Assembly (NCBI RefSeq): GCF_003334405.1
Contig: NZ_QOWM01000007.1
Length of the DNA: 64,000 nucleotides
Source of the DNA: Escherichia coli
Lineage (GTDB): Bacteria > Pseudomonadota > Gammaproteobacteria > Enterobacterales > Enterobacteriaceae
Strand: one strand, 5' to 3'
The notes below the pieces were generated by a model. It saw only the letters and a program-made list of their open reading frames with translations, did not search any database and was not told the DNA's origin. Position 1 is the first letter of the stretch. The number at the start of each line of letters is the position of its first letter. A program made the position numbers and the translations under genes. Below, piece by piece: positions 32,452-32,487 of the stretch.

Positions 32452-32487
32452 GCCTGCCTGAACTTAATGTCAGGCAGGCTTTTTTTT
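32452..32487. terminator. bidirectional intrinsic terminator between convergent waaK and waaL (9-bp stem GCCTGCCTG/CAGGCAGGC, 10-nt loop, 8 T)
   Basis: Perfect inverted repeat followed by TTTTTTTT on the plus strand and preceded by an A-rich tract; overlaps the waaL stop codon. Confidence 0.65.

Follow-up and report, generated by a model that had tools for sequence, protein, structure and literature searches.

The waa locus and its convergent junction

The window, by which we mean the whole stretch of 64,000 nucleotides analysed here, carries the waa locus of an E. coli with an R2-type core. The region is 100% identical to that of E. coli FORC 064 and is present in 501 of 5426 complete E. coli genomes, the R2-core being found in about 9% of complete genomes. 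Gene annotation was taken from the RefSeq record of this identical strain (offset from locus to window, +19899), where the ten genes of the waaQ operon appear as rfaQ, rfaG, rfaP, a GT8 gene, waaB, waaO, rfaJ, rfaY, waaZ and an LPS N-acetylglucosaminyltransferase (WaaK). The annotation bears out a preliminary description of the sequence, which had placed a ten-gene waaQ operon here in convergent orientation to waaL, the O-antigen ligase gene (Table 1).

The waaQ operon is a classic target of RfaH, and its leader carries the ops element at which RfaH is loaded. This element is identical to the sequence at the 3′ end of the K-12 leader as given in a Term-seq table, and the bases that follow it, CTTTTTTC, are exactly as in K-12 (22295-22315 for the element with these bases). 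A very abundant 3′ end was mapped there in K-12 (3808183/84), matching the annotated small RNA RirA (Adams et al. 2021, PMC7815308). By analogy, production of RirA is very likely in the R2 strain as well.

Table 1. Features of the waaK/waaL junction and of the waaQ operon, in positions of the window.
Feature	Position	Strand	Remarks
ops element GGCGGTAGCGTG, RfaH loading site in the waaQ leader	22295..22306	+	single exact match in the window
waaQ operon of ten genes (waaQ, G, P, GT8 gene, B, O, J, Y, Z, waaK)	22354..32432	+	FORC 064 RefSeq annotation
waaK (LPS N-acetylglucosaminyltransferase), final gene of the waaQ operon	31290..32432	+	TAA at 32430-32432; ORF list and annotation
Spacer from waaK stop to stem	32433..32451	+	19 nt, between the waaK TAA and the G+C stem
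Hairpin 5′ arm GCCTGCCTG	32452..32460	both	read directly; invariant across four Escherichia lineages
Hairpin loop AACTTAATGT	32461..32470	both	10 nt; 5 of 10 columns variable between lineages
Hairpin 3′ arm CAGGCAGGC	32471..32479	both	read directly; invariant across four Escherichia lineages
T8 run, U tract of the + strand terminator	32480..32487	+	read directly; A32488 is next
waaL stop codon TAA	32486..32488	-	on the waaL mRNA, followed by the stem after 6 nt
waaL/rfaL (O-antigen ligase), last gene of the rfaD-waaF-waaC-waaL operon	32486..33703	-	ORF; identical annotation in FORC 064

Anatomy of the hairpin

The two genes converge on a gap of 53 bp that holds a single hairpin. Direct reading of the sequence confirms what had been described for 32452-32487, namely a perfect 9-bp stem, a 10-nt loop and a run of eight T. 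The stem can also be drawn longer, since the ends of the loop (A32461 and T32470) are pairable, giving a 10-bp stem with an 8-nt loop, and GAAGA (32447-51), the 3′ end of the spacer, is pairable with the first five U, giving 15 pairs. Read on the opposite strand, the same GAAGA is a poor U tract, UCUUC. The A-rich tract that had been placed upstream of the stem was overstated: the sequence is GATTTGAAGA, with A at only three of the five bases adjoining the stem.

The T run overlaps the end of waaL, again as described. The waaL TAA is the complement of 32486-32488, and two of its three bases lie inside the run, as its last two T. The final codons of waaL, AAT AAA TAA (N-K-stop), read in antisense as TTATTTATT, the T-rich distal tail of the terminator on the + strand; the C-terminus of WaaL (…RNK, …KNK) uses AAT and AAA codons that double as this tail on the opposite strand. 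Spacing to the stem differs between the two sides, at 19 nt for the waaK stop against 6 nt for that of waaL.

This arrangement had been called unusually tight, which proved to be wrong: of 11 related junctions, 10 have the waaL stop at 0–7 nt from the extended hairpin, and among other convergent pairs in the window mutM and coaD leave a gap of only 38 bp, while waaH and yibQ overlap by 14 bp (40513-40526; extract L001, 20614-20627) and have no intergenic terminator. The mutM/coaD gap is filled by a perfect 9-bp G+C-rich hairpin, GCCGGATGG cata CCATCCGGC (20154-20175), with no T tract on either side and with a REP-like GCCGGATG motif; a similar CGCCGGATG hairpin is found at 15368-15391.

A strong signal in the direction of the waaQ operon

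RNA folding, proposed in the preliminary description as a check on both strands, gave -26.6 kcal/mol for the + strand in a 76-nt context (z -4.87) and -21.2 kcal/mol for the - strand in its context (z -4.08), with none of 200 shuffles as stable in either case. The core of the + strand structure accounts for -19.0 kcal/mol, with 10 bp and seven G-C pairs within the perfect nine, and the core of the - strand structure for -18.9 kcal/mol.

On the + strand the site has what an intrinsic terminator consists of, namely a G+C-rich stem-loop, an adjacent U tract, and a position 19 nt past the last stop codon of the operon. The forward tail, UUUUUUUUAUUUAUU, has U at all eight positions, starting at the first base past the stem (nT 5.95). 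We ranked candidates on both strands of the whole 64-kb window by a score of the type of d'Aubenton-Carafa et al. 1990, used for ranking only; the forward d score of +56.7 is the highest of the 10 positive candidates. The site outranks our positive control, the rpmG terminator (19262-19277), whose counterpart in K-12 is a very strong Term-seq 3′ end (PMC7815308). A consensus terminator scan called the + strand and not the - strand. A search of the window for perfect hairpins with stems of 9 bp or more gave 17 hits (2.4 expected), among which a T8 run follows only the one at 32452-32487.

The top score in the window, the eight U and the stable fold support the prediction, made earlier, of a strong terminator for the waaQ operon. 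Judged by its sequence, 32452-32487 is an intrinsic terminator of an ordinary and well-known type, and mainly one of the + strand. Like canonical E. coli intrinsic terminators, that of rpmG for instance, it is a G+C stem-loop followed by at least six U and lying a few tens of nt past the last stop of the operon. It differs from the typical small tetraloop hairpin in having a longer stem (9–10 bp, extendable to 15 with A/G-U pairs) and a loop of 8–10 nt, and from canonical terminators in that its distal U-rich tail is made up of codons of the opposing gene.

A strong signal at the end of this particular operon makes sense because polymerase modified by RfaH terminates less well, termination at the intrinsic terminator Thly being cut by RfaH from about 40% to 18% in vitro (PMC2871177). 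The rationale is not universal, as the operon-end hairpins of K-12, R1 and R4 score below zero.

The waaL-sense signal

For transcripts of waaL the stem-loop is present and a proper U tract is not, the reverse tail, UCUUCAAAUCC, having U at three of its first eight nt (nT 1.88, d = -17.5). Free RNA is also short on this side, only 6 nt separating the waaL TAA from the stem. Li et al. found that a terminator placed a few bp past a stop codon is almost fully repressed in E. coli, and that folding takes about 10–15 nt of free RNA, efficiency in their system being full with more than 27 nt (PMC4824070). The hairpin would thus be a poor intrinsic terminator for waaL, because of the weak U tract and of the stop codon so close before the stem, and we regard efficient termination of waaL by it as unlikely. 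The earlier label of a bidirectional terminator therefore stands for the waaQ-operon direction and falls for efficient termination of waaL, for which the U content, the negative score, the missing scan call and the nearby stop all count against it.

Other observations bear on how such a site might work. Termination is still possible at imperfect U tracts, with NusA or under convergent transcription (bioRxiv 10.1101/2022.10.23.513370). In E. coli R3 and Silvania the two stop codons are each no more than a few nt from the hairpin, so that tight stop spacing is no obvious obstacle to the maintenance of such hairpins. Our d-score scan of the - strand found no second waaL-sense terminator with a positive score before 28112. 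The first positive-scoring site that read-through from waaL would meet, about 4.3 kb past the junction, is a terminator-like hairpin with T7 behind it (28112-28087, - strand; d = +16), which lies antisense to waaO. The - strand RNA past the waaK/waaL hairpin is C-rich and G-poor, with a C/G ratio of 1.5–2.4 at 32050-32300, which is a rut-like composition. Promoter-like matches near the site (e.g. 32638-32609, - strand) are at chance level, with 38 found and 38 expected.

The same hairpin in other Escherichia

A scan for WaaK in species-representative genomes gave 15 loci, and the same hairpin is found in E. coli E69, E. whittamii and E. albertii. Across the four Escherichia lineages all 18 stem positions are invariant, and the loop, the 5′ flank and the length of the T run vary. 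This pattern of an invariant stem between variable loop and flanks indicates that the stem is under purifying selection; covariation carries no information for this hairpin, the stem being the same in all four lineages.

The E. albertii orthologue has AAAAAA upstream of the stem, that is U6 on the reverse strand, and scores positive both ways, with d of +39 forward and +21 reverse. The reverse signal of the R2 E. coli version would accordingly have decayed, or never have been built. The T run has eight T in the window, seven in E. coli CRE78 and E69, and six in E. albertii; such changes leave the waaL reading frame unaltered, because the stop codon uses the distal TT together with the A. The T7 of CRE78 (extract L022, 118-127) could also be a homopolymer sequencing error.

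About ten R2 genomes are less than 99% identical over the hairpin region, and two of these were examined: CRE78, with its T7, and E. coli CUWW10 (NZ_CP182145; extract L021, 1788-2485), in which an IS1 element (IS1A) is inserted between the waaK stop and the hairpin. The operon of CUWW10 is thus separated from its terminator, with waaL and the hairpin intact. A further R2-like strain, E. coli W170 (NZ_CP163029), matches only bases 355-1101 of the query, i.e. from window position 32254 onward; a different glycosyltransferase is annotated beside rfaL, there are two matching places, and the strain looks like a case of a rearranged or hybrid core locus that has retained the hairpin. Two short contigs from metagenome-assembled genomes, CABHOW010000132.1 (Flavihumibacter sp.) and JAEWTL010000120.1 (a Bacillota bacterium), encode a WaaK 100% identical to that of the window and agree with it base for base over the 142 bases read (the waaK end, the hairpin and the waaL end). 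They are almost certainly E. coli contamination of the bins.

We also looked for other identities. A REP/BIME element or mobile repeat was rejected, the sequence having one copy in the window at up to three mismatches and, in the 501 genomes, one place per genome, always at this locus. Rfam 15, searched at a permissive E-value, gave nothing at the gathering thresholds, the matches to RybB (22.3 bits, gathering 40) and rli38 (28.7 bits, gathering 49) having E-values of 0.3–0.55. In the literature searched we found no discussion of a waaK/waaL terminator.

Other hairpins at the convergent junction

A different hairpin, GGCTAC...GTAGCC, is common to Citrobacter, Cedecea and two Silvania species, and the hairpin of E. 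coli R3 and Escherichia sp. MOD1 (GGCCGCA...) aligns to it; Salmonella diarizonae has a third, distinct one. All of these lie at the WaaK/WaaD–WaaL junction, with an A tract on one side and a T tract on the other. Covariation support in the GGCTAC family is modest, with two compensatory pairs in six sequences and 10 of 500 shuffles reaching the observed covariation score. The gap in R1 and R4 holds a different hairpin again. In the R1 type (strain O18; extract L004, 4593-5916) and the R4 type (extract L005, 4639-5940) waaL is the last gene on the strand of the waaQ operon and converges on waaC. Compared with R2, R3 and K-12, the junction of the convergent genes is thus shifted onward by one gene, and the hairpin with it.

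Among the sequences compared, a hairpin at the convergent junction is recurrent and its sequence is not, and the presence of unrelated hairpins at the same junction in other enterobacteria and core types indicates that a terminator is selected for there. The symmetric junctions, in which an A tract, a hairpin and a T tract follow one another (E. albertii, Citrobacter, Silvania, R3), share with the R2 site its position and gene pair, and in E. albertii also its stem. The R2 site departs from them in its upstream tract, which is GAAGA, and in having three U in the first eight on the reverse strand rather than six or seven.

Direct data, from Term-seq, come from the K-12 junction. Its hairpin between waaU and waaL (MG1655 3798220-3798246; extract L002, 4221-4246) has the same position in the locus as that of R2 and likewise a stop codon in or next to the hairpin, the waaU stop being inside the stem. 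However, it is unrelated in sequence, A+T-rich, weaker at -11 kcal/mol and without a U tract on either strand. Despite the poor U tract the dominant waaL 3′ end was mapped at 3798250/52, 5 nt past the hairpin, and no waaU-strand 3′ end is listed at the hairpin; beyond it the waaL-sense strand has a Rho termination region (Rho score 3.4), which runs antisense to waaZ (Adams et al. 2021, PMC7815308). On the waaU strand, downstream of the hairpin and inside waaL, the small proteins YibX and YibY are translated (extract L002, 3773-4150), and waaL and yibX are listed as a convergent transcriptional overlap. Together these suggest leakage out of the K-12 waaQ operon, an internal promoter being an alternative.

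Interpretation and alternatives

Taking the evidence together, the site is probably a very strong Rho-independent end of the RfaH-dependent waaQ–waaK operon, with a waaL side that is poor and partial. The 10-bp G+C-rich hairpin of about -19 kcal/mol, 19 nt past the waaK stop and followed by eight U, would end the waaQ operon. On the waaL strand the same hairpin most likely brings about partial termination or pausing and acts as a barrier to 3′ exonucleases that defines the end of the waaL mRNA. Read-through from waaL would then be cleared by Rho, acting on the untranslated, C-rich RNA antisense to waaK, or alternatively by head-on collision with polymerases coming from the waaQ operon. Such finishing of leaky termination, by Rho or by collision, is what the K-12 Term-seq data suggest for the weaker hairpin there. 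What the sequences show directly are the anatomy, the stability, the rank in the window, the conservation and the asymmetric flanks; the efficiencies in the two directions, the effect of the ribosome and the back-up by Rho or collision are inferred.

The reading of the preliminary description, by which one hairpin efficiently ends both the waaQ operon and waaL, seems unlikely to us, though it has several points in its favour. Both strands of the palindrome fold equally well, their core energies being almost the same; the E. albertii orthologue, with six A upstream, scores positive both ways; most of the other WaaK–WaaL junctions are symmetric; and in K-12 a waaL 3′ end lies directly past the hairpin even with a poor U tract. 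However, the reverse tail in the window, UCUUCAAAUCC, has a clearly negative score and draws no call from the scan, and the waaL stop lies at a distance from the stem where ribosomes repress folding (PMC4824070). As to K-12, a Term-seq end past a hairpin can also arise when exonucleases trim an RNA terminated by Rho (PMC7815308). A different mechanism would be that of the overlapping bidirectional terminators of Ju et al. 2019, in which the hairpin pauses polymerases from both sides and release comes from head-on and trailing collisions. The model and the pausing role of the hairpin are described in a later paper (bioRxiv 10.1101/2022.10.23.513370). The site has a convergent gene pair with a single hairpin in the 53-bp gap, and pausing of polymerases on the waaL side might explain that direction. 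The class is described there as unlike intrinsic terminators, whereas the R2 site has a full intrinsic signal in the forward direction, a textbook case in which no collision is needed, and as an account of the site as a whole we find collision very improbable.

That the hairpin has no terminator function at all is scarcely credible. As a chance inverted repeat it is excluded by the shuffles, and a REP-type palindrome or mobile element would not be expected to be single-copy in the window and confined to one place in each of the 501 genomes. It might otherwise be the 3′ end of a small RNA from the waaK 3′ UTR, and the sub-threshold Rfam matches to RybB and rli38 do both end at 32487, but a terminator shape is enough to explain matches below gathering, and the only conserved sequence upstream is the coding sequence of waaK.

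If the site is, as we prefer, a strong end for the waaQ operon and a poor one for waaL, its asymmetry could have a use of its own. The waaL stop 6 nt from the stem, together with the decayed A tract, might make the junction a one-way valve that blocks RfaH-modified polymerases and lets translation-coupled transcription of waaL pass into antisense waaK and waaZ, in the manner of an excludon. We consider this highly unlikely; were it true, it would mean an antisense link between O-antigen ligation and the core-decoration genes, tuned by the coupling of translation and transcription in waaL.

The element itself is an ordinary feature, of a kind that is already well known. In R2-core E. coli it is predicted to mark the 3′ boundary of the RfaH-dependent operon for the LPS core and to shield waaL from antisense transcription. 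Each core type and related genus has evolved, or kept, its own hairpin at this junction, which makes it a clear case of selection for insulation. The hairpins differ widely in strength, that of R2 being very strong and that of K-12 weak; the leakiness of the latter would fit the translated antisense yibX and yibY. Being compact and strong, the R2 element could find use as a terminator part.
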